Positions 1 through 55,903 of a stretch of DNA of 64,000 nucleotides are shown piece by piece. The notes under the pieces were generated by a model. The model saw nothing but the letters and a program-made list of their open reading frames with translations, did no database searches and was not told where the DNA came from. Position numbers and translations under genes: made by a program. This DNA is from Escherichia phage vB_vPM_PD06, in sequence record NC_052653.1. One strand, 5' to 3'. Position 1 is the first letter of the stretch; each line of letters opens with the position of its first letter.

Positions 1-465
1 GAACTTAACCGTTATCCTAATGACAAATTCTCTGATGCACTTGCATTAATGGGTATCAGTATTACTGAACACGGCTATGCTGCAAAAGAAGTTAAACTTC
101 TGAAAGTTAACGGTGTAGATCGTACAGCAGATGTTTCGTCAGATACCGATATTGACGGTATGACAGCACAAGGTTTGTTTAGCGGTAATCGTTATGTTGT
201 AGCTGTAGATCATAAGTCAGGAGAAGAGCATCTTCCTGAAATGGAAGGGATTGTTACCGTAGAAGATAAAGATGAAGAAGGTGACTACTACTGGGGTGTA
301 GACCGTATCTTGCTAACGTATGATGAAAAACACATTCGTACAATGGGTGGTGACGGTTATCACTTTATGTTCACCGATGATAAAGGTAACAACATTGAAG
401 TTGTTATTAAAAACAAAGAACGTAAAAACTACACAGAGTATGTGTTTGGTGGTCGTTCTTACTAA
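1..465 (+). CDS. hypothetical protein, 5' end outside window
   Basis: Reading frame is open from position 1 and continuous with the listed ORF 49..465; no recognisable motif. Confidence 0.45.
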   Translation, partial: ELNRYPNDKFSDALALMGISITEHGYAAKEVKLLKVNGVDRTADVSSDTDIDGMTAQGLFSGNRYVVAVDHKSGEEHLPEMEGIVTVEDKDEEGDYYWGVDRILLTYDEKHIRTMGGDGYHFMFTDDKGNNIEVVIKNKERKNYTEYVFGGRSY

Positions 466-3567: not shown

Positions 3568-3595
3568 TTGACTTTCTTTAAAAACAGTTTATAGT
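3568..3595 (+). promoter_or_regulatory. sigma70-like promoter (TTGACT, 16 nt, TATAGT)
   Basis: -35 TTGACT at 3568-3573 and -10 TATAGT at 3590-3595; followed by a hairpin GCGGAGG-ATTGT-CCTCCGC at about 3607-3626 in the leader of the TerC-like gene. Confidence 0.45.
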
Positions 3596-3644
3596 ATACG
3601 ACATATAGCGGAGGATTGTCCTCCGCATTAAAGAGGAGAAAAGA

Positions 3645-4622
3645 ATGCAACTGGGTTTCCCAATTATTGATGTGGTTGTTTTAGTGGGTATTTTAGTCTT
3701 GTCGATTTGTATTGATTTCTTCGGACACAGAGAAAACAAAGAAATCTCATTTAAATCTGCAATTGGCTGGTCAATTTTCTGGATTGGGGTATCATTAGCC
3801 TACTATGGTTTTGTATACTTCCAACACGGTGCTGATTTCGCGAGCTTGTTCTTGAGTGGGTATGTGTTGGAGAAATCTCTTTCTGTAGATAACTTAGTAG
3901 TATTTGTGGCAGTATTCGCAAGTTTTGGTATTAAAAGCACACACTTGCAACACAAGATTCTACTTTGGGGTATTGCAGGTGCGATTGTCTTCCGAGGTGT
4001 GTTTGTAGCAGTAGGCACTTACTTGTTGAGTTTGGGCTGGTATGTTAATATCTTCTTCGGTGCTGTCATCCTTTTCTGTGCAGCTAAAATGGTATTCGCT
4101 GGAGATAATGACGCAGAAGTTGATTACTCTAAACACTGGGCTACTCGCATTGTTCGTAAGCTGTTCCCTGTATCTGATCAGATGGATGGTGAGAAGTTCT
4201 TCACAATCAAAAATGGTGTTCGTGTAGCAACTCCTGCATTGGTTTGTGTGTTTGTAATGGAAATGGTTGACGTAATCTTTGCAGTAGACTCTGTTCCAGC
4301 AGTAATTGCAGTGACACAAGAACCTCTGCTTGTATTTTCTTCAATGCTGTGTGCAATTTTAGGTCTACGTGCTCTGTTCTTTGTCCTTAGTGTTGCACTG
4401 AAATATTTGGTTCATCTGGAGAAAGCAGTTATCGTAGTCCTGGTATTTGTGGGTGTAAAACTGATGTATCACCCGTTTGCAGAAACTCTGCACGCAAAAG
4501 TGAGTTTCCTGCCAGCACACATTGATCCGACGATCAGTATGTATATTGTGTTAGGTACTCTGGGGCTGGGTGTTATTGCAAGTTTAATCTTCCCTGAAAA
4601 AGAAGACCAGGCTGTTGCTTAA
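3645..4622 (+). CDS. terC: TerC-family integral membrane protein
   Basis: Polytopic membrane protein of 325 aa containing SVDNLVVFVAVFASFG and a second acidic-then-hydrophobic block (EMVDVIFAVDSVPAVIAV), as in TerC-family proteins; RBS AAGAGGAG. Confidence 0.6.
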   Translation: MQLGFPIIDVVVLVGILVLSICIDFFGHRENKEISFKSAIGWSIFWIGVSLAYYGFVYFQHGADFASLFLSGYVLEKSLSVDNLVVFVAVFASFGIKSTHLQHKILLWGIAGAIVFRGVFVAVGTYLLSLGWYVNIFFGAVILFCAAKMVFAGDNDAEVDYSKHWATRIVRKLFPVSDQMDGEKFFTIKNGVRVATPALVCVFVMEMVDVIFAVDSVPAVIAVTQEPLLVFSSMLCAILGLRALFFVLSVALKYLVHLEKAVIVVLVFVGVKLMYHPFAETLHAKVSFLPAHIDPTISMYIVLGTLGLGVIASLIFPEKEDQAVA

Positions 4623-6400: not shown

Positions 6401-7504
6401 ATGTCCAGTCCTTTTATCAGTGCCGTAAAAAGCAAACCGTCTGAAACGAGTGTATTCACGGCAACAACAGAAAAAAGTAAGTCTTTGTTTGCTCCAAGTG
6501 CTATGGATGCAAGCCCTGTATATGCCCCTGCTGTTGCACGACCTGTACAAATGCTGCCTCCAATGTCTCGTGAAGAGATTGAACAGGTTGGTGCTGATGC
6601 AGGACTTACTCTTCGTAACCTTAATGCGGAAGTGCTTAAACACCAGCGTTCATCTCAGGGAGATGAAATGAGTGAGCGTTTAACCGCACTTATTAAGCAA
6701 GCAAAGCAACTTGATCCTAATTCTATTAAACAATCTAAAGGTTTAGGTAAGCTAGTTAAGAAAGTATTAGGTATGAAAGAAGATTTGTTTGGAGAATTTG
6801 ACACCATCAATAATCGTATTGAAGGTTTGGTAAAGACACTCCAAACAGACTTGAAAAAAGAAGAAGATTCTTTACGATATCTGCAACGTTTAGAAGAGGC
6901 TATTGCAAAATATGCTCTTAGCTTAAACAGGGATATAGAGCTTCTAACAGCTACTTATGAAAAAGAAGAAGTTCACCTTAATACACTACCTGAAAATGAA
7001 GTAGAAGAGCGTCAACGTACTCGTGATACTATGGATCTGCTTGAAATTCGTATTGCAGACCTGAAAGCCTTGCGTTTACTGTGTGTTCAGATGGGGCCAC
7101 GTGTACAAAGTATGCAGAAAGTATCTGCAAGTTTGATGCGATCAGCCCGTAATATTGTGAATAATGTTATTCCTGCTTACTCTGCAAACTTTTCTATGTA
7201 TATTGAAAGTCTACGCCAGAAGAAAGCAGCCGATACACAGAACAATGTACTGAATGAATTTAATGCTGCTATTGCAATGGGTAGTGATCTGGCTGCACAA
7301 AACCAAATTGAAGCTACACAACTTGCTAATCGTCAAGTATTGGATATTGAGACATTACGTCGCGATCAAGAAAACTTAGTTAAAATGTTGGAAGAAACTA
7401 ATCGGATCAACACTGAAGCCCGTGCTGCTCGTATTGATTACATTCAAGAAGTGCAATCTCTTGAAGATGGTATGATTCAAACTGTTAAACGTGGTCTACT
7501 TTAA
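6401..7504 (+). CDS. TelA-like (toxic anion resistance family) protein, tentative
   Basis: 367 aa, largely helical/coiled-coil sequence of the size expected for TelA/KlaA proteins; call rests mainly on co-location with TerC-like, TerD-like and vWA genes. Confidence 0.4.
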   Translation: MSSPFISAVKSKPSETSVFTATTEKSKSLFAPSAMDASPVYAPAVARPVQMLPPMSREEIEQVGADAGLTLRNLNAEVLKHQRSSQGDEMSERLTALIKQAKQLDPNSIKQSKGLGKLVKKVLGMKEDLFGEFDTINNRIEGLVKTLQTDLKKEEDSLRYLQRLEEAIAKYALSLNRDIELLTATYEKEEVHLNTLPENEVEERQRTRDTMDLLEIRIADLKALRLLCVQMGPRVQSMQKVSASLMRSARNIVNNVIPAYSANFSMYIESLRQKKAADTQNNVLNEFNAAIAMGSDLAAQNQIEATQLANRQVLDIETLRRDQENLVKMLEETNRINTEARAARIDYIQEVQSLEDGMIQTVKRGLL

Positions 7505-8282: not shown

Positions 8283-9077
8283 ATGTCCAATAAAATCAGT
8301 CTTAAAAAACGTCAAGAAACTCTTACTGTATCTCTGCGTAAGAAAAAGATTAACGATGTTGTTCTTCGTGTCGGTAGCGCCTTAGATATTTCGGGTAGTA
8401 TGTGTGAGCTGTATCGTGATGGCACTGTTAGTGATTTTGTAGGTAAACTGCTGCCGTTTGGTATGAAGTTTGATGACAATGCACAGATTGACATGTGGGC
8501 TTTCAATAGTTCTTCTTTTGAACTGCCTCCTGCAACGGCTGATGTGTATGATGATTATGTCGGCTCTTGCATGTCTAATGTTTGCATCAACGGTGGTACT
8601 GCTTATGCTCCAGTAATGCAAGAGATCTATGATACATACTTCGGTAGTGTACCTATGAAAAATATTACACGCGAAGTCGTTGAGTATGAAGAAGTCCCGG
8701 CTAAGGGTTTCCTTGCTAAACTAACTGGTAAAAAAGAACTTGTAGAAGTAACACGTACTATTGTAGAACAGGTTGTAGATACTGATGCACAAGTTGATCG
8801 TACTCCTGCAATGATTTTCTTCCAAACTGACGGGGAAAACATGGATACTTCAGCAGTACGTAGCTTACTGAACAAACACCGCAATACGCCTGTTTACTGG
8901 TTTATGGTTGGTGTAGGTAATGCAAACTTTAAATTCCTGAAAGACTTGGCAAAAGAGTACGATAATGTTGATTTTATCGGTATTGCAGATTTGTCCTTGT
9001 CTGATGAAGAACTTTACGATAAACTGTTATCCGAAGAGTTTGGTGAGTGGGTTAAAAAATTCGGAGCAAAAGCGTAA
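8283..9077 (+). CDS. von Willebrand factor A (vWA) domain protein, TerY/TerF-like
   Basis: MIDAS-like DISGSM (DxSxS) near the N-terminus, downstream threonine-containing and acidic blocks; N-terminal ISLKK..VSLRKK echoes the start of the TerD-like protein. Confidence 0.55.
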   Translation: MSNKISLKKRQETLTVSLRKKKINDVVLRVGSALDISGSMCELYRDGTVSDFVGKLLPFGMKFDDNAQIDMWAFNSSSFELPPATADVYDDYVGSCMSNVCINGGTAYAPVMQEIYDTYFGSVPMKNITREVVEYEEVPAKGFLAKLTGKKELVEVTRTIVEQVVDTDAQVDRTPAMIFFQTDGENMDTSAVRSLLNKHRNTPVYWFMVGVGNANFKFLKDLAKEYDNVDFIGIADLSLSDEELYDKLLSEEFGEWVKKFGAKA

Positions 9078-9084
9078 AAAACGC

Positions 9085-9112
9085 TTGACTTTGTAGAAAA
9101 GATTAGTAAAAT
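9085..9112 (+). promoter_or_regulatory. sigma70-like promoter (TTGACT, 16 nt, TAAAAT)
   Basis: -35 TTGACT at 9085-9090 and -10 TAAAAT at 9107-9112, upstream of the TerD-like gene. Confidence 0.4.
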
Positions 9113-9149
9113 AGACAACGTAAATTAACAACAAAGGAGATAATAAATT

Positions 9150-9746
9150 ATGACTCAGAAAATTTCCCTGAAAAAAGGTTCTAGCGAAAAAGTTTCTCTG
9201 AAAAAGATCGCACCAGCACTGAAACGCATTCGTCTGGAATTCTCTTGGAAATCTAACGAAAAACTGGATCTGGATGTTAGTGCTCTGATTTGCCGACACA
9301 ATGCATCTGGTCTGCCGGAACTGTTGTCTCCTCGTCACCTGGTGTGCTACGCGCAGAAATTTGATCCTGAACGTTCTACTTTTGCAGGTGAAGATGTTCG
9401 TGATGGTGTAGGACAGATGGAGCAGATTGATGTTACACTGGATAATATCTCTGCTGAAGCACAGGAAATTGCATTCGTAATTACTATTGATGACGAAACG
9501 GGTAAGAAACGCCTTGGTCACGCTACCGAAGGTTTCCTTAAAATCTTCGATGATGAACGTAATGTTGAACTGCTGGACTTTGACTTCTTGGCTCCAGAAC
9601 TTGCAGGTAACACCATTTGCCACGTTGCCTCCCTGGTGCGAGAAGATAGCGAATGGAAACTGAAAGCGTATGGTGTAGGTAAAGCTGGGCTTGACATTTA
9701 CGATGTAGTTAAAGCGTTTGGCGCTGGCGACGATTGGTTCGAGTAA
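9150..9746 (+). CDS. terD: TerD-domain protein
   Basis: N-terminal ISLKKGSSEKVSLKK, LDLDVSALIC and acidic clusters (FAGEDVRDGVGQMEQIDVTL) match the TerD/TerZ/TerE fold pattern. Codon usage is conspicuously CTG/CGT/CCG/GAA-rich compared with neighbours. Confidence 0.7.
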   Translation: MTQKISLKKGSSEKVSLKKIAPALKRIRLEFSWKSNEKLDLDVSALICRHNASGLPELLSPRHLVCYAQKFDPERSTFAGEDVRDGVGQMEQIDVTLDNISAEAQEIAFVITIDDETGKKRLGHATEGFLKIFDDERNVELLDFDFLAPELAGNTICHVASLVREDSEWKLKAYGVGKAGLDIYDVVKAFGAGDDWFE

Positions 9747-9767: not shown

Positions 9768-9790
9768 GCGCCCTTCGGGGCGCATATTTT
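9768..9790 (+). terminator. rho-independent terminator
   Basis: GCGCCC-TTCG-GGGCGC hairpin followed by ATATTTT. Confidence 0.55.
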
Positions 9791-9810: not shown

Positions 9811-10413
9811 ATGGGTATTACTTTAGAAGGTCAAAAACTTATTCGTAGCGGCAATTTTCTTGTAGATATTGACAACAATGAAGATTATGCTTTAGAAGTT
9901 AGTGATGTGCTGTTTGATGCTTTGCAGTCTGGTTTCAATTTTGAAGTTTATGAAGTAATCCGTGGAACTAAACTCAGAGAAACCCTTGGATCATCTAGTG
10001 ATGTTTATCCGGCAATCTGGCAATATTTCGGGTTGATGGAGGGTAAGACATATCTTACTGATAGTTATTCTGAAGATGTTGTTTATCTTGATATGGAAGA
10101 GTTTCGTCGTCTGTTCAAAAGTGAAGAAAATGAAGAAGAGGGTGAACTTTTTGAAGGAATTACTCTCGAAGGTAATGTTGAAATTGTGTACAAAGCAGGA
10201 AAAACATTCCACCTACGCGAAAACGGTAAAGCAAAAGTTGATTTTGTAAACAAGACAGTGACAACTGAACATAATTATCTTAAAGATGGTCAACCAGCTT
10301 TTGAGCGTGTAAAAATTAAATTTAAAGTGTTGTCTGCACTAGTTACGGATCAAGAACGTATTGATTTTGTAGAAGATGGTGTAGTAACTCATACAAAGGT
10401 TTACAATATCTAA
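9811..10413 (+). CDS. hypothetical protein
   Basis: ORF track; RBS AGAGGAG. Confidence 0.5.
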   Translation: MGITLEGQKLIRSGNFLVDIDNNEDYALEVSDVLFDALQSGFNFEVYEVIRGTKLRETLGSSSDVYPAIWQYFGLMEGKTYLTDSYSEDVVYLDMEEFRRLFKSEENEEEGELFEGITLEGNVEIVYKAGKTFHLRENGKAKVDFVNKTVTTEHNYLKDGQPAFERVKIKFKVLSALVTDQERIDFVEDGVVTHTKVYNI

Positions 10414-17490: not shown

Positions 17491-20400
17491 ATGGGAGCTT
17501 TTACTTTCGACATTGAAAGTAACAACTTGCTTAATGACGAAAGTGTAGATTACTTGGCAAGTCCATATCGTTTAAAAGATAGTTTTGCAATGCACTGTAT
17601 TGTGTGCGAAAGTCATGATACTGGAGAGATTATTGCTTTCCATGATGGTGATAAATATCTTTTCGATGGTCGTCCGTATATTGAGACTGACGGAAAGTAT
17701 GAATACCGACTGGAGGAATATGAGCATTTAGAATATACCCATTTCCCTCTTAAAGATTTTCCTGATTTTGTAAATGGAACAGGTAAATTTAAAGGTAATT
17801 CAAACTATAAAATTACCAAAGTAGTTGGACACAACATCATTAACTTCGACTTACTGGCAATTAAATTATTTTTTAAACTCAACTACAGTATTAAGTACAA
17901 TACTTGGGGTAATAGTAACATTGAAATTTGTGATACTATGATCTTAAGTAAGACACTAAACCCTGATCGCTTCGGTGGTCATAGTCTGGCAGAGTTATCT
18001 AAGAAAGCTGGAGGGGATGTTAAAATTGATTTTAGAAAAAACATTCCTGAAACTGAAAGATTTAGAACATTTGCAGCAGATATGCTGTATTACTGTATTT
18101 ACGATAACAAAGCTAACACCGCAGTGTTCCGTTATTTGATGGAAGAGTGGGGTGATTATAACAAGTGGTCTGAACCATTTAACTTAGAACAACGTGTAGC
18201 TGATATTATTACACGTCAAGAGCACCGTGGCTTTGCTTTCAATATGAAACAAGCAGAAGATAATATTCGTGATCTGGATGCTCGAATGGAAGCATGTCGT
18301 TTAGAGGCAGAACCTGTGCTACCTCCTAAACCTGCTACTAAAGGTTATTTGAAATCATTCATTCCACCTAAACTACAGTTTAAAAAGAATGGTGAGCCTT
18401 CAAGTAACATGATAAAGTTTGCAGAGAAACATTCTGGTGAACTTGTACAAAAAGAAGATGGTTGGTGGTTATTTGCATTAGGTAAAGAGTTTAAACTACC
18501 TATTCCAGCAGAAGAACCTATTTGTGATCCTACAGTACCTGCTACTTTAGACGACACTACACATATTAAAAATTGGTTAGTTGGTTTAGGTTGGAGTCCA
18601 TCTGAATATAAAGATAAAGATATCACTCTTAAATCTGGCACTAAGATTAAGAAAGATGAAGCACAAATGGAGAAAGCTATTCGTGACTATGTTGATCAAA
18701 CATTAGCATCTAACTTCTGCCAGGATAGATGTGATCATCTGGAGTGCACACCAGAAACTTTGGAATGGAAACTAAGAGATCGTATTGCTAAAGCTAAAGG
18801 TCGTGGTGTTAAAGTGCTTACTAACCCTTCCTTTACAAAAGGGCAAGAGAAGGATATTTGTCCTAACTTGGAAGCACTGGGTGAAAAGTTCCCTTATGCT
18901 ACGCAGATTGTGCAGTATCTTACGTATAAACATCGTAGAAACTCTATTCTAGGTGGTGGTGCTGATTGGGAAGAGGATGAAGAGGATTACGATAAAGGTT
19001 ATCTGGCGGCAGTAAGAGCTGATGGTCGTATACCAACTCCTGCTGCAACGTGTGATGCAGCTACGTCTCGTATGAAACATAGGTTAGTAGCAAATATCCC
19101 ACGTGTAACATCTCTGTACGGATATGAAATGCGTAACTTATTTGGTGTAGAAGTTCCAAAATACTTCCAAATTGGTTATGACTTTGATTCTCTTGAGGCA
19201 AAAATAGAATCACACTACTGTGTACCTATGGATGCACAAGCACTAACCCGTAAAGGTTGGGTTGGTTATCACGATCTACAAGAAGGGGATGAAATCTTAG
19301 GATATAACCCAGAAACAGGACTTAAAGAATGGACTAAAGTAAAAGGTAAGGTCTTCTATAAAAATAGTAAGACGTTTGAGATTAAAGGAAAATCCCATAC
19401 TTATCGTGCAACAGCAGATCACCGTTGGTATGTTAATACTCGTAGTACAGGGAATACTTATGTGCCTAAAGTCAGAACAACTGCCGAGCTTTGCACAGGA
19501 GATAACATTATTTGTAATGCTCCATTTAACATGGAACAAGATCAAGTAAATAGTTTAACTTCTGTTCAACAAGGTAAATGGGATGTTCCGTGGGTAGAAC
19601 GTGTAGTTAATATGTCTCATGCCGAGCGTGTGGCTTTCTTGGAAGGTTTTTTGATTGCGGATGGTTACTGGCACAAACATAAACAAAAACCTGTTTGGCG
19701 CTGGGCGCAGAACCCAGGAGAACTTTTTGAAGCAGCCTTAACTGCCTCATACCTGGTTCATGGGGGTAATATTTCTGTAGCCTTCAATACGAAAGACCAG
19801 AAAGTAAAAGTGGCAACGTTGGCTAACCGCTCTCACATCCCTGTTCAAAGTCTGACTATTGAAGAATGGGGTGTAGAAGATGTTTGGTGTCCACAAACAG
19901 AACTCGGTACATGGGTTATGCGTCAGAAAGACTGCATCACGATTACAGGGAATTGTTGGCGGTACGAGCAGGAACCACACGAATATTGTAATGCTCTATT
20001 GTTGGAAAAACCTAATGATGTTCATACAATGATGGCTCGACGTATTTCTGACACTATTGGTCGTAAGTTTGAACGAAGCCCTGCTAAATCTGTTAAGTAT
20101 GGTATTACTTATGGTGCTCAAGCTGCAAAAGTAGCAAAAACTATAGGTAGTGATATGTATACAGGACAGCTTGTATACGATGCTTTCTGGGAAGCTGCAA
20201 AACCTCTTGCGCTTCTTAAAGAACGTCTGCATGACTTTTGGGTTAAAACAGGTAAGAAATACATTCTTGGTATTGATGGTAGGAAAGTACCTACACGATC
20301 TGCACACGCAATACTTAACTCTCTGTTCCAGAGTGGTGGTGTTATTTGTGCAAAAAGAGCAATGGTTATCTACGATGATCTTATCGAAGAAGAAGGATTA

Positions 20401-20805
20401 GCTGTTGACTTTTTTGTTGATGACTGGAAAAATAAGTCATTCGTTCAACAAATGATTGCATATCACGATGAAGCACAGCTTGAAGTAACTCGTGATCTGG
20501 TGCATTTTAAATGGTTCTCTAAAGAATCTTTAGGTTGGACTCAAGTTGATGATCCAGAAGAACAAAAGAAAATTGATAAAGAATGTTTGGATAAAGTTAA
20601 TGCCTGGAAAGAAGAGGAAGAGAAACGTACTGGCAAGATTTGGGCTAACGTACATGAATCTCCGAAAGGTGGTTGGTTTACAGCCTACAGTCGTGCTGGA
20701 GAATTAGCATCTATCGCTGTTAATAAAGCTGGTGAGTATTACAATCTTAATGTACCTCTAACTGCTGGTTACGATGTTGGTAGTTCATGGTCAACTTGTC
20801 ACTGA
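17491..20805 (+). CDS. family A DNA polymerase with 3'-5' exonuclease domain, interrupted by an intein
   Basis: FDIESN (Exo I DxE); polymerase motif A DFDSLEAKIESHY; motif B RRISDTIGRKF...KYGITYGA; motif C AYHDEAQLE. A 245-aa Hint/LAGLIDADG insertion lies between motifs A and B. Confidence 0.85.
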   Translation: MGAFTFDIESNNLLNDESVDYLASPYRLKDSFAMHCIVCESHDTGEIIAFHDGDKYLFDGRPYIETDGKYEYRLEEYEHLEYTHFPLKDFPDFVNGTGKFKGNSNYKITKVVGHNIINFDLLAIKLFFKLNYSIKYNTWGNSNIEICDTMILSKTLNPDRFGGHSLAELSKKAGGDVKIDFRKNIPETERFRTFAADMLYYCIYDNKANTAVFRYLMEEWGDYNKWSEPFNLEQRVADIITRQEHRGFAFNMKQAEDNIRDLDARMEACRLEAEPVLPPKPATKGYLKSFIPPKLQFKKNGEPSSNMIKFAEKHSGELVQKEDGWWLFALGKEFKLPIPAEEPICDPTVPATLDDTTHIKNWLVGLGWSPSEYKDKDITLKSGTKIKKDEAQMEKAIRDYVDQTLASNFCQDRCDHLECTPETLEWKLRDRIAKAKGRGVKVLTNPSFTKGQEKDICPNLEALGEKFPYATQIVQYLTYKHRRNSILGGGADWEEDEEDYDKGYLAAVRADGRIPTPAATCDAATSRMKHRLVANIPRVTSLYGYEMRNLFGVEVPKYFQIGYDFDSLEAKIESHYCVPMDAQALTRKGWVGYHDLQEGDEILGYNPETGLKEWTKVKGKVFYKNSKTFEIKGKSHTYRATADHRWYVNTRSTGNTYVPKVRTTAELCTGDNIICNAPFNMEQDQVNSLTSVQQGKWDVPWVERVVNMSHAERVAFLEGFLIADGYWHKHKQKPVWRWAQNPGELFEAALTASYLVHGGNISVAFNTKDQKVKVATLANRSHIPVQSLTIEEWGVEDVWCPQTELGTWVMRQKDCITITGNCWRYEQEPHEYCNALLLEKPNDVHTMMARRISDTIGRKFERSPAKSVKYGITYGAQAAKVAKTIGSDMYTGQLVYDAFWEAAKPLALLKERLHDFWVKTGKKYILGIDGRKVPTRSAHAILNSLFQSGGVICAKRAMVIYDDLIEEEGLAVDFFVDDWKNKSFVQQMIAYHDEAQLEVTRDLVHFKWFSKESLGWTQVDDPEEQKKIDKECLDKVNAWKEEEEKRTGKIWANVHESPKGGWFTAYSRAGELASIAVNKAGEYYNLNVPLTAGYDVGSSWSTCH
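19219..19953 (+). mobile_element. intein with LAGLIDADG homing-endonuclease domain, inside the DNA polymerase
   Basis: Starts at Cys (CVPMDAQALTRKGWVGYHDLQEGDEIL, Hint block A), block B TADHRWYV, LAGLIDADG-like ERVAFLEGFLIADGYW, ends ...ITGN followed by Cys. 735 nt = 245 codons. Removal joins motif A directly to CWRYEQ. Confidence 0.7.
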
Positions 20806-20832
20806 CATCTCTTTGATTTTAAAGGAGTTTTT

Positions 20833-21429
20833 ATGCTTACCGTGTATGGTGAAGGTATTAATGATTTGGAAGGCGAGAGTACACTACCTGGTAGTAAGAA
20901 ACTAACGCCGCATTATATGAAATGGATGGCTATGTTGGGGAGGTGTTACTCCCCTTGTCAACAAGAACGTGATCCTTGTTATAAGGGGGTGACGGTTTGT
21001 GAAGAATGGAAGTTGTTCTCCAATTTCTATTCCTGGTTGCAAACTTGGGATAACTGGGAAAACTTAGAACTTGATAAAGATATTATAGGAGGGAGAGTTT
21101 ACTCTCCCGATACCTGTCTTTTAGTAACAGGAGATCTTAATAAGTTCTTAGCTTATAGAGTAAGTAAAAGATCTCATGGGACTATGGTAGGCTGTAGTTA
21201 CGAGAAAGATCGTAAAAAGTATAAAGCCAACATAAAAGTAGGCAGTCGCATGAAAACGCTGGGACGTTTTAATACTGAAATTGAAGCGCATCTTTGCTGG
21301 TTGAAAGCTAAGGCAGAGCAGCTTACAAAATTCTTTGAAACTGAAGATGAAAGAGTTGTTCCACATCTTAAAGCACTATGTAATGAAATGCTTGAGCATG
21401 TAGAACAACATAAAGAGTGGACACGATAG
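20833..21429 (+). CDS. hypothetical protein, possible DNA-binding/HNH-associated domain
   Basis: W..M..RC...Y..V.VCEEW..F..F pattern is reminiscent of DNA-binding modules of phage homing endonucleases; no clear HNH catalytic motif seen. Confidence 0.35.
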   Translation: MLTVYGEGINDLEGESTLPGSKKLTPHYMKWMAMLGRCYSPCQQERDPCYKGVTVCEEWKLFSNFYSWLQTWDNWENLELDKDIIGGRVYSPDTCLLVTGDLNKFLAYRVSKRSHGTMVGCSYEKDRKKYKANIKVGSRMKTLGRFNTEIEAHLCWLKAKAEQLTKFFETEDERVVPHLKALCNEMLEHVEQHKEWTR

Positions 21430-22489: not shown

Positions 22490-23437
22490 ATGCCAGTAAT
22501 TAATTCTGAAATCGACCGTCGTACTAAAAAAGAAGCATTCTGGGCTGAAGGTATTGTCGAATATGTCAAACTAGATAAGTTTGATGAAATGAAAGTCTCT
22601 TATATTAAGGTTGCAGGTCAACCAGATAAGAAAATTGAATCAACTCACAAAGCATCTCTGCTTATTAAAGAGAAAGGTGCTGGTGCTGATGATAAAGGTG
22701 TTTGGGTTAGCCTAGGTGAAGTTAAACTGCACCCAGAACATGAAAACCTGCAAGTTAAAGATGGTGATAAGTGGGTTACTATCGAAAAAGGTGTAGAATT
22801 AACTATGGATGTTAAACCTTCCGAATGGAATGGCAAAACATACTACAATTCCTCTAAAGGTAAAATCACTATTCTTTCAACAGAAGGTGTTCAGCAAGCA
22901 CAATCCTCTTCAAAAGGTGGAAATAAGCCATCTAATAATGACGGTAGCAAGCCTAACTACAAAAAACGTGATACCGTAGGGATTGAAACAGGACACGCTG
23001 TAAACGGCGCTCTGGAGCTTCTACGTGCTGGTGTGAAAGGTGATGCTTTCGACTTGGCTGGTGTGGTACAATCTGCAACTGTTACTCTGAAAGCTGAAAT
23101 TGCTAAAGATCGTGGCGTTGATGTGACTGATTATGATCTTGGTGCTTCAGTTGGACACGCAATTCTTAACGCTTGTCGTGATCATACAGGTAAAACTGTA
23201 ACGGCAGAAGAGATTATTGAAGCTGCTCGTGAAGTTCTTGCTTTGTCTGATAAAGTAGCTGCTGCTATCCGTGGAATGTCTACTCCAGTACAAGAAGTTA
23301 AGAAAGAAACTAAAAAAGTAGAGAAGAAAGAGCCAGCACCGAAAGAACCAGAACCTGTTGTTCAAGATTTCGATGATGATATCCCATTTGCTCCTATTGG
23401 TTTGCAATATGGTCGAAACTTCCTGCACTGTTTCTAA
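22490..23437 (+). CDS. single-stranded DNA-binding protein-like
   Basis: Gly/Ser/Asn-rich flexible linker followed by DFDDDIPF, identical to the acidic C-terminal tip of E. coli SSB; here 15 more residues follow the tip. RBS GAGGAG. Confidence 0.5.
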   Translation: MPVINSEIDRRTKKEAFWAEGIVEYVKLDKFDEMKVSYIKVAGQPDKKIESTHKASLLIKEKGAGADDKGVWVSLGEVKLHPEHENLQVKDGDKWVTIEKGVELTMDVKPSEWNGKTYYNSSKGKITILSTEGVQQAQSSSKGGNKPSNNDGSKPNYKKRDTVGIETGHAVNGALELLRAGVKGDAFDLAGVVQSATVTLKAEIAKDRGVDVTDYDLGASVGHAILNACRDHTGKTVTAEEIIEAAREVLALSDKVAAAIRGMSTPVQEVKKETKKVEKKEPAPKEPEPVVQDFDDDIPFAPIGLQYGRNFLHCF

Positions 23438-54487: not shown

Positions 54488-55489
54488 TTAAGCAGTAGTC
54501 AGTTTAACTACCAGTTCTGGACGGGTATTAACCGCCAGCAGGGAGAATTCAGACTGTAGCTGTACAGTGCGGTGTTCAGATACCATAAAGGTATACAGAT
54601 CACGAGCAACAGTGTTAGCCAGTTCTGGAGTATCCGCTGGAGCATAGTGCGCCTGGAACATATCTGGAATACCCATTGGCAGAACAAACGCTTCACCAGC
54701 AGGGATGTTACCGTGGATATCTTCGATGTAGGTTACACCATTCCATTCGAATACCTGAACGTCCATATTACCGCTTAGGCGGTCACGCAGAAGGTTCGGA
54801 GTACCTTGGAAGTATTGATAAGCCTGGCGAACAAACGGAGAGTTAACCAGAGAAGCAAAGAACTCACGAGAGCACAGAGCAACGATACGAGTAGCGGTAG
54901 AACCGTCTTGTTTCTGATCGATGATGTATGCACGAGCTTCTTTCTCAATGGTAGCAGCCGGAGAAACAGTAGTAGAAGCGAAGTCTACAGATACTGATTT
55001 CTGGGTAGCACCCCATTCGGTGTACCAGTTGTATGCAGAGTTAGCTGCACCACCAACACCATTGTATGCACGACCCATTACTGCTTCTGCAAAGATTTTT
55101 TCTTTAGTTTTTGCAACATCACGCAGGATTTGAGTCATATAGCGGTTAACAACTTCCGCTTCGGTACGCAGGTTATCATTGATGCCACCCATAGCGAAGC
55201 TACGGAAGGATTGAATATCCTGTGCCTTAATGTTCTTATCCAGAGGGAAGAACGGAATACGGAAGACTTTAACGCTTGGAGCGTCCATAGTCAGGAAGTT
55301 ACGCTCACCACCACGTTCACGTGCTGGGATCAGACCATCTGCATTTTTCTGTCTGCCAATTTCGATAGCAGTGGTAGCATGATACTGAACATCAAACAGG
55401 TTCAGACTTGCGATAAGTGTATCAGGAGTTTCTTGTAGCTCAATCATTGGGCTAAAGTCAACAACCTGATCTAAGATAATAGCTGGCAT
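54488..55489 (-). CDS. major capsid protein
   Basis: 333 aa, G+C-richer codon usage than neighbours; order portal, scaffold, small decoration-like protein, this gene, terminator mirrors lambda-like head modules. Confidence 0.6.
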   Translation of the reverse strand: MPAIILDQVVDFSPMIELQETPDTLIASLNLFDVQYHATTAIEIGRQKNADGLIPARERGGERNFLTMDAPSVKVFRIPFFPLDKNIKAQDIQSFRSFAMGGINDNLRTEAEVVNRYMTQILRDVAKTKEKIFAEAVMGRAYNGVGGAANSAYNWYTEWGATQKSVSVDFASTTVSPAATIEKEARAYIIDQKQDGSTATRIVALCSREFFASLVNSPFVRQAYQYFQGTPNLLRDRLSGNMDVQVFEWNGVTYIEDIHGNIPAGEAFVLPMGIPDMFQAHYAPADTPELANTVARDLYTFMVSEHRTVQLQSEFSLLAVNTRPELVVKLTTA

Positions 55490-55510
55490 GTATAAATCTC
55501 CTATTAAAAA

Positions 55511-55903
55511 TTAAGAAGTGAAAACAACTTTTTCAGTCAGTTTCAGATCGTGAGTTTCCAGTGCTGCAACGCCAGCGTCATCAATCAGATCACCACTCTT
55601 GTAGTAAACTGCATAACGGTTGAGAGTCAGGTCACGTACACCAACAACTGCGGTGAAAGTGTCACCTACTGCAACATCATCGATCCCGAACAGTGCGTCA
55701 GTCCACAGCAGAACTTTAACAGCTTCACCAGCAGAAGCAGCTTCTGTGTTGTCAGCTTTCAGTACAGAACCAATTTTCATGGTTGCAGTTTTAACCAGGT
55801 TCACTTCACGAACACAGTGACCTAGGTCAGAACTAAATACTCCACCCAGAACAAGGTGTCCAAATTCCTGGCGGTAGTTTGATAAAGAAATTCCAGTTGC
55901 CAT
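55511..55903 (-). CDS. putative head decoration protein
   Basis: 130 aa, immediately upstream of the major capsid gene; call by size and position. Confidence 0.4.
   Translation of the reverse strand: MATGISLSNYRQEFGHLVLGGVFSSDLGHCVREVNLVKTATMKIGSVLKADNTEAASAGEAVKVLLWTDALFGIDDVAVGDTFTAVVGVRDLTLNRYAVYYKSGDLIDDAGVAALETHDLKLTEKVVFTS

Follow-up and report, generated by a model that had tools for sequence, protein, structure and literature searches.

Codon usage of a TerD gene in the phi92-like Escherichia phage vB_vPM_PD06 and its conservation among related phages

The TerD gene and its codon usage

The stretch of Escherichia phage vB_vPM_PD06 DNA analyzed here (the window; 64,000 nucleotides of sequence record NC_052653.1) contains at 9150..9746 an intact open reading frame (ORF) on the plus strand, which encodes a TerD-domain protein of 198 aa and departs strongly in its codon usage from the other ORFs. 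A 3-kb stretch around this gene is 99% identical to the Escherichia phages pEC-M2929-1AR.1, ECGD1 and other phi92-like myophages, members of Justusliebigvirus within the Stephanstirmvirinae with genomes of ~146 kb. The protein is 100% identical to phi92 gp172, which is annotated as a “putative stress protein”; many database records of TerD orthologs in Justusliebigvirus and Phapecoctavirus carry the label “hypothetical protein,” and in PHROGs both TerD (phrog_5698) and the protein encoded directly upstream, a TerF-like protein with a vWA domain, are listed under “unknown function.” The genes for gp172 and for its phAPEC8 ortholog gp066 occupy the same genomic position as the window gene, between the vWA and endolysin genes, and the database records of gp172 and its orthologs are silent on codon adaptation and expression. 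The features on which the codon analysis rests, with their codon adaptation index (CAI) and z-score where these serve for comparison, are as follows.

9150..9746, plus strand: TerD-domain protein gene (198 aa), the codon-usage island; Pfam PF02342; product identical to phi92 gp172
54488..55489, minus strand: major capsid protein gene, comparison gene; Pfam Phage_cap_E, E 9e-40; CAI 0.584, z = 16.9
55511..55903, minus strand: head decoration protein gene, comparison gene; annotated “head decoration” in the close relative PHB05; CAI 0.583, z = 9.2
62883..63598, minus strand: part of the phage tRNA cluster (Ile-GAT, Met, Leu-TAG, Phe, Pro-TGG, Gln-TTG); ARAGORN and Rfam

The first-pass annotation of the window, made from the letters and the translated ORFs, had called the gene TerD-like, and this label is right. 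The product matches PF02342 with 98.2 bits (cut-off 25.3; E 5e-28), residues 5–180 corresponding to profile positions 3–178 of 187, and it finds 2kxt (E 9e-15) and 3ibz (E 3e-13) among the sequences of the PDB. An AlphaFold2 model of the protein (mean predicted local distance difference test score 90.1; predicted template modeling score 0.89) was compared with the PDB by Foldseek, which returned 3ibz (E 1.7e-13; template modeling (TM) score 0.72 query-normalized and 0.80 target-normalized), 2kxt (E 2.4e-12; TM 0.68 and 0.76) and 2qz7, each with a probability of 1.0. Judged by this predicted model, the phage protein shares not only the Pfam family but also the beta-sandwich fold of bacterial TerD, TerE and TerZ proteins such as Klebsiella TerD (2KXT) and its Streptomyces relative (3IBZ), at target-normalized TM scores of 0.76–0.80.

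The N-terminal motifs (I/V)SLxKG and DLD(A/V)S, which the phage protein has in common with its bacterial relatives, are both present: S6, L7, K9, D40, L41 and D42 are shared by all 18 aligned phage and bacterial sequences, G10 and S44 by nearly all. An acidic motif, GDN(R/L)TG(E/A)GDGDDE, is reported to bind Ca2+ in a nuclear magnetic resonance study of Klebsiella TerD. This motif is not intact in the window protein, where the aligned residues read G-E-D-V-R-(gap)-D-G-V-G-Q-M-E. More generally, the bacterial motif GDNRTGEGDGDDE gives way in the phage clade to the consensus G[EDA]DVR-DG[TV]Gx[ML]E, which is 2 residues shorter and has 3 acidic positions replaced. The phage-clade proteins furthermore end in a conserved C-terminal extension, FGxxxxW[FY][ED](CP), which is absent from the aligned bacterial TerD, TerE and TerZ. 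In the window protein the degenerate acidic loop comprises residues 79–92 and the extension residues 181–198. The genetic context differs as well, the window gene being that of a virulent phage.

The main claim of the first-pass annotation, that a codon-usage island lies at this gene and that the capsid and decoration genes (54488..55903) are similarly biased, was borne out in both parts when CAI, the G+C content of third codon positions (GC3) and per-codon counts were computed for each of the 75 ORFs called in the window. With the Sharp-Li E. coli weights, the TerD gene reaches a CAI of 0.529 against a mean of 0.287 (standard deviation 0.088) over these ORFs and ranks 3/75, exceeded only by the major capsid and decoration genes. 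When its amino-acid sequence was held fixed and the synonymous codons were resampled 5000 times from the window background, the resulting CAI was 0.284 +/- 0.025 (z = 10), and none of the 5000 resamples attained the observed value; a G-test of its codon usage against the background gave p = 1.6e-9. A second weight table, built from 30 E. coli K-12 genes for ribosomal proteins and elongation factors (5,185 codons) and correlated with the Sharp-Li table at r = 0.976, was applied to the complete PHB05 genome. Here, the TerD gene ranks 3 of 213 ORFs (CAI 0.614, z = 3.2), behind the capsid (0.653) and decoration (0.644) genes and ahead of a fourth-ranked gene at 0.551, and it likewise ranks 3/213 in PHB05 with the Sharp-Li table. 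The Sharp-Li weights are thereby ruled out as a source of the bias. The island at the TerD gene is real, rightly located and well beyond chance.

The codons that carry the bias are in part others than those first named. Among CTG, CGT, CCG, GAA and AAA, which had been listed as heavily used, only CTG discriminates the gene, with 15 of 21 leucines against 13% in the background. At 1/5 prolines, CCG is not heavily used, and CGT (5/9; background 47%), GAA (15/17; background 78%) and AAA (15/17; background 75%) are preferred throughout the genome. Further discriminating codons are CAG (5/5), CAC (4/4), TGC (3/3), TCT (8/13) and GGT (10/14), and TTA, CTA, ATA, AGA, TCA and CAA are not used at all. 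The gene is distinguished by its choice of codons and not by a simple preference for G- or C-ending ones: at a GC3 of 0.376, as opposed to ~0.26 in its neighbors, most codons still end in A or T, and the T-ending GGT, TCT and GTT are favored just as they are in the capsid and decoration genes, with which the bias agrees codon by codon.

A reference-free principal component analysis (PCA) of relative synonymous codon usage (RSCU) over the 143 genes of at least 100 aa gave a first component (PC1; 17% of the variance) that correlates with E. coli CAI (rho 0.79) and hardly with GC3 (rho 0.13). The TerD gene ranks 2/143 on PC1, next after the major capsid gene, and is unremarkable on PC2, the GC3 axis. 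Because the bias lies on the component that tracks host CAI and not GC3, it is of the translational-selection type rather than compositional.

The tRNA genes of the phage sharpen this picture. The PHB05 genome encodes 16 tRNAs, including Leu-TAA, Leu-TAG, Ser-TGA, Thr-TGT, Gly-TCC, Gln-TTG and Pro-TGG, and the window contains six of them. These phage tRNAs decode the A-ending codons favored by the bulk of the phage genome. Counting the seven cognate codons together with ATA, which is included on the assumption that one of three CAT-anticodon tRNAs reads it, such codons make up 4 of 77 (5%) in the TerD gene as opposed to 33% genome-wide, the lowest share of 141 genes (p = 4e-9); the capsid gene uses 17% and the decoration gene 14%. 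TerD is thus the gene most completely written for the host’s own tRNA pool, and its sparing use of phage-tRNA codons would fit an onset of translation before the phage tRNAs accumulate.

Conservation of the gene and of its bias in related phages

The phAPEC8 ortholog gp066 is 81% identical to the window TerD at the amino-acid level (80.8%) and 78% at the nucleotide level. By amino-acid identity, TerD is the most conserved of the 20 ortholog pairs in the region. The phAPEC8 gene has a CAI of 0.535, uses CTG for 18 of 19 leucines and ranks 1/52 among the ORFs of a 40-kb region. This agreement is maintained although the codons themselves have turned over: at 63 of 160 conserved residues (39%) the two genes use different synonymous codons, and among these 63 differences the optimal codon is found only in the window gene at 26 positions and only in phAPEC8 at 24. 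Such a balance indicates turnover at equilibrium, not decay. Comparing the phi92 type with the phAPEC8 type over the 20 ortholog pairs, the share of conserved degenerate codons that differ is 41% for TerD and averages ~47%, and per-gene CAI is correlated between the two genera at rho 0.88. The bias of the TerD gene is therefore held by selection despite near-saturated synonymous divergence.

In Klebsiella phage 05F01 the TerD ortholog is 48% identical to the window protein and ranks 4/52 in CAI. The order TerC ... TelA ... vWA ... TerD ... cell-wall hydrolase is common to phi92, phAPEC8 and 05F01, as established for phAPEC8 by reciprocal protein matches and for 05F01 by position and gene size, most genes of the latter being annotated as “hypothetical.” This conserved gene order suggests that these Stephanstirmvirinae lineages probably inherited the TerD gene from their common ancestor. 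A similar optimization is seen outside the subfamily in the unrelated Cronobacter phage vB_CsaP_009 (Grimontviridae), where TerD has a CAI of 0.480 next to 0.475 for the major head protein and ranks 3/61 ORFs.

Some further observations concern these relatives. In vB_CsaP_009, a 70-aa ORF directly after TerD (20659..20874) exceeds all others of its 40-kb region in CAI. In Klebsiella phage KP13-16, positions 19995..21220 hold tandem TerD paralogs, followed by another ORF and then by TelA, so that the order of the module is unlike that of the window. The records MG065639, MG065645, MG065656 and MG065689 are named “Campylobacter phage” (host C. jejuni) and are, over this region, 98% identical to the phi92-like coliphages, with an identical TerD; the host assignment of these four records looks doubtful, and carry-over of a coliphage is one way in which it could have arisen.

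The Ter module and the TerD expression unit

In the window, the TerD gene is the last of four plus-strand genes whose families (TerC, TelA, TerF-type vWA and TerD) make up a Ter module. The other three are the following.

3645..4622, plus strand: TerC-family membrane protein gene; Pfam PF03741, E 1.2e-38; CAI 0.345, z = 3.7, slightly raised
6401..7504, plus strand: TelA-like protein gene; Pfam PF05816, E 5.5e-34; CAI 0.273, z = 1.7, not raised
8283..9077, plus strand: vWA-TerF-like protein gene, directly upstream of TerD; Pfam PF10138, E 1.5e-38; CAI 0.404, z = 5.0, moderately raised

Codon adaptation is graded across the module, from TerD (0.53) through vWA (0.40) and TerC (0.35) to TelA (0.27), which suggests unequal stoichiometry of the products. 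The vWA-TerF-like gene ranks 9/213 genome-wide with the Sharp-Li weights and 7/213 with the empirical ones. Its protein carries a DxSxS motif (LDISGSM) resembling a metal ion-dependent adhesion site (MIDAS), and its N-terminus resembles that of TerD. None of the ten ORFs scanned against Pfam matched a TerB- or TerA-specific family, and the PADLOC defense models matched neither TerD nor any of six neighboring proteins.

In bacteria, the terZABCDEF operon is associated with tellurite resistance, phage inhibition and colicin resistance. In an E. coli plasmid ter operon, terD (0.531) and terE (0.494) have the highest CAI and the other ter genes lie at 0.26–0.41, so that TerD paralogs are the most codon-optimized genes of the cluster in both systems. 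Iyer et al. (2021; PMC7824862) described abbreviated Ter modules composed of TerC, TelA, TerF-vWA and TerD from virulent and jumbo phages, and such a module has been noted in Klebsiella phage phiKp34 (PMC8386662). These modules comprise the same four components on one strand as the window does, and they have been proposed to be linked to the membrane and to act against superinfecting phages or xenobiotics, with superinfection exclusion as the suggested role (PMC7824862; PMC8386662). By analogy this published hypothesis applies equally to the window, where the module may serve in superinfection exclusion or in protection from envelope stress. Expression level and codon adaptation are not discussed in these two papers; in the window, TerD stands out within its own module. 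Among phage genes in general, its codon preferences are those of highly expressed virion genes, here represented by the major capsid and decoration genes, from which it differs in that none of the examined records annotates it as structural and that it avoids the phage-tRNA codons more fully than the capsid genes do.

The immediate surroundings of the gene contain the elements expected of a small transcription and translation unit.

9085..9112, plus strand: sigma-70-like promoter candidate, TTGACT-16 nt-TAAAAT, within the 72 nt that separate vWA from TerD; consensus scan, 10/12 matches
9134..9139, plus strand: Shine-Dalgarno sequence AAGGAG, 10 nt upstream of the TerD ATG; AGGAG invariant in all three lineages
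9768..9790, plus strand: intrinsic-terminator-like hairpin GCGCCC-TTCG-GGGCGC followed by ATATTTT, 22 nt past the stop codon; -14.0 kcal/mol; terminator scan

GC-rich hairpins occupy the same position in phAPEC8 (-17.5 kcal/mol) and 05F01 (-18.4 kcal/mol). Because they share this position with the hairpin of the phi92 type although the three sequences cannot be aligned with one another, they argue for a conserved terminator after TerD in the three lineages. The structure predicted for the initiation region of TerD is weak (-3.0 kcal/mol) and ranks as the 8th weakest of 70. In phAPEC8 and 05F01 the terminator is directly followed by a promoter-like site and the endolysin gene. Only the phi92 type has a 200-aa ORF, at 9811..10413 on the plus strand (phi92 gp171; PHROG 22473, unknown function), between TerD and the cell-wall hydrolase; the codon usage of this ORF is not optimized above background.

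At the other end of the module, the region 3568..3645 upstream of the TerC gene (plus strand) contains a promoter-like site, TTGACT-16-TATAGT, and then a perfect 8-bp GC-rich hairpin, GCGGAGGATTGTCCTCCGC, which lies ahead of the Shine-Dalgarno sequence in the presumed 5' untranslated region of this gene. Bacterial genes of the TerC family are often controlled by yybP-ykoY Mn2+ riboswitches. When the whole window was scanned with Rfam at gathering thresholds, six tRNAs only were found and no known riboswitch or leader appeared upstream of TerC or TerD.

Possible causes of the bias

The codon usage of the TerD gene is most likely the outcome of long-term translational selection on a gene that has long resided in the phage and whose protein must be supplied in very large, and probably stoichiometric, amounts. 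The TerD protein would be required in quantities comparable to those of the head proteins, and its synonymous sites would in turn be kept under translational selection. The gene would be read by the abundant tRNAs of the host through CTG, CAG, CAC, TGC, TCT and GGT, with the A-ending codons of the phage tRNAs almost wholly avoided. In the phi92 type it may form a small expression unit of its own, consisting of promoter-like site, Shine-Dalgarno sequence, ORF and hairpin terminator, and this unit would close the conserved TerC...TelA...vWA(TerF-like)...TerD module near the endolysin gene. At high abundance the protein would be expected to have a bulk or stoichiometric rather than a catalytic role, and its beta-sandwich could possibly bind ligands or metals as an abundant partner of the TerC, TelA and vWA proteins in the cytoplasm or beneath the membrane. 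Together with these partners, TerD may stabilize or seal the envelope of the infected cell, in superinfection exclusion or stress protection, as the literature proposes for phage Ter modules. Its expression may begin early, before the phage tRNAs accumulate.

The first-pass annotation had offered recent acquisition from an enterobacterial ter locus as one of two explanations. The donor could be the plasmid terZABCDEF operon or an O157-type ter island, and the codon usage would then be the signature of this donor before amelioration. The protein does belong to the Pfam TerD family, the GC content of its gene (0.447) lies above the window average (38%), and enterobacterial terD is similarly adapted, at the CAI of 0.531 given above. 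Nevertheless, blastn searches (word size 11) with the TerD gene found no match in 72,556 plasmids or in 5,426 complete E. coli genomes. At the protein level, tblastn against the plasmids retrieved 2,334 ter-bearing records, all of them below 60% identity and at most 32% identical among the best matches listed, and identity to TerZ, TerD and TerE of the E. coli plasmid operon is 29–30%. Among 5.8 billion protein sequences, the matches above 48% identity all came from phage-sized contigs of ~150 kb or from short fragments; a single fragment labeled Xanthomonadaceae (125 aa on a 525-bp contig) is 80% identical, and the other bacterial matches are at most 33% identical. Plasmid ter genes have a GC3 of ~0.50, unlike the 0.376 of the window gene, which is unremarkable on the GC3 axis, and syntenic orthologs reaching down to 48% identity are found in Justusliebigvirus, Phapecoctavirus and the Klebsiella-phage lineage. 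The missing nucleotide similarity and the low identity to TerZ, TerD and TerE, along with the donor-unlike GC3 and the conserved synteny, refute a recent acquisition, which we regard as scarcely credible. An ancient acquisition from a highly expressed bacterial TerD, whose bias would persist as a slowly decaying relic that is no longer under selection, is somewhat less improbable and still very unlikely. Bacterial terD and terE are themselves codon-optimized, so that a donor gene would have arrived biased; in the time since, decay toward the phage background of ~0.28 would be expected, as neighboring genes show. Instead, with synonymous sites near saturation (41% in TerD, 47% in its neighbors), both orthologs have remained at a CAI of ~0.53 with balanced changes to and from optimal codons, and per-gene CAI as a whole has been kept between the genera.

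That the bias is an artifact of amino-acid composition, short length or chance has next to no probability. The gene comprises only 197 codons and GAA, AAA and CGT are genome-wide preferences, yet the null with fixed amino acids and the G-test leave no room for such an effect, and the result was replicated with independent weights, by reference-free PCA and in orthologs; the resampling null, the RSCU PCA and the K-12-derived weights together refute it. Timing rather than amount has more in its favor and is nonetheless unlikely as the explanation: the gene would be expressed early, translated before the 16 tRNAs of the phage are made, and would avoid the codons of these tRNAs with no need for exceptional abundance. 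Its phage-tRNA codon use is the lowest in the genome, below that of the late capsid genes, a host-type promoter-like site lies upstream, and phage EmPhiS expresses its Ter genes at an early stage of infection (bioRxiv 10.1101/2025.10.29.685362). Against this, the small ORFs presumed to be early (1–12 kb and 130–147 kb in PHB05) have ordinary CAI and few of them are in the top 20, so that, if these genes are indeed early, early timing alone does not yield the bias of TerD. The late capsid and decoration genes furthermore share the preference for CTG, CGT, GGT and TCT, a pattern that speaks for expression level. As causes, timing and amount do not exclude each other.

Several points weigh against translational selection for a very abundant product. 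In Klebsiella phage KP13-16, the two tandem TerD genes show a weak bias and rank 5 and 15 of 58 ORFs. Extreme optimization of TerD is clear in phAPEC8 and in the Cronobacter Privateervirus and weaker in 05F01 and KP13-16; hence, it is not universal. The promoter-like site at 9085..9112 is only a consensus match, present in the phi92 type and absent from phAPEC8 and 05F01, and promoter-like sites in the region are barely more frequent than by chance (39 found, 31 expected from shuffled sequence). The duplex energy of the TerD Shine-Dalgarno sequence is average (27th of 70) and the structure of the start region is not exceptional. The position of the gene near the endolysin gene, together with the occurrence of sigma-70-like sites ahead of structural genes, makes its timing ambiguous. 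Transcriptome, proteome or ribosome-profiling data for Stephanstirmvirinae phages were not found in the searchable literature, and the paper on BME3 does not mention Ter genes; the abundance of TerD is predicted from its codon usage. Finally, the acidic Ca2+ motif of the phage clade is shortened and partly de-acidified and the C-terminal tail is phage-specific, which leaves the molecular activity and the ligand of TerD uncertain.

Features of translation initiation had also been considered as an explanation of high expression. With an average Shine-Dalgarno sequence and a weak start structure that is not unique to the gene, they were set aside and are not used as evidence.

For the second explanation in the first-pass annotation, very high early expression, these results differ between its two halves. 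The bias on PC1, the capsid-like codons and the conservation in orthologs support very high expression by inference, and an early onset, which is possible, has indirect hints only. A bolder version of translational selection for abundance, to which we give tentative credence at best, is that TerD is made at capsid scale as a bulk stoichiometric component and the most host-tRNA-dependent gene product of the phage, for instance as a cytoplasmic metal or ligand buffer or as a sub-membrane coat. Such a coat, formed with vWA, TelA and TerC from the first minutes of infection, might seal the cell against superinfecting phages, colicin-like pores and premature failure of the envelope until lysis. It is purely speculative that the acidic and aromatic C-terminal tail (DWFE) of TerD could dock into the MIDAS site of the neighboring vWA protein. 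If TerD were indeed produced on this scale, its codon optimization would flag it as the quantitatively dominant non-structural phage product and would open a direct experimental route to the function of Ter systems, which has long gone unexplained.

The gene, its family, the Ter modules of phages and the codon adaptation of highly expressed phage genes are already known, and as a genome feature the island represents ordinary translational selection in a databased gene and not evidence of horizontal transfer. The prediction that TerD is the most codon-optimized non-structural gene of these phages was not found in the searchable literature and is modestly interesting. TerD, TerC, TelA and TerF proteins occur widely in bacteria, on plasmids and in many virulent phages, and in phi92- and phAPEC8-like phages TerD is tuned on a par with the head proteins and above the three other genes of its module, which predicts a very abundant, probably stoichiometric, non-structural product. 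This prediction concerns coliphages that are candidates for therapy, is cheaply testable and may guide experiments on Ter modules during infection.

Apart from the TerD gene, two ORFs of the window stand out by their codon adaptation. The plus-strand gene 22490..23437, at the end of the replication module and just ahead of the tail genes, encodes a 315-aa protein with no Pfam match which belongs to PHROG 4477 (unknown function); its CAI of 0.435–0.450 is the fourth highest genome-wide, its phAPEC8 ortholog has a CAI of 0.496, and a KP13-16 gene that corresponds to it in position ranks 1/58. Its product is probably another very abundant non-structural protein. A 138-aa ORF at 49..465 on the plus strand, with no Pfam or PHROG match, has a CAI of 0.457, the fourth highest in the window. 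Conversely, the mechanically called plus-strand ORFs 63259..63519 and 63523..63711 overlap tRNA genes on the opposite strand and have an aberrant GC3 of 0.48–0.54; these two are almost certainly not genes.

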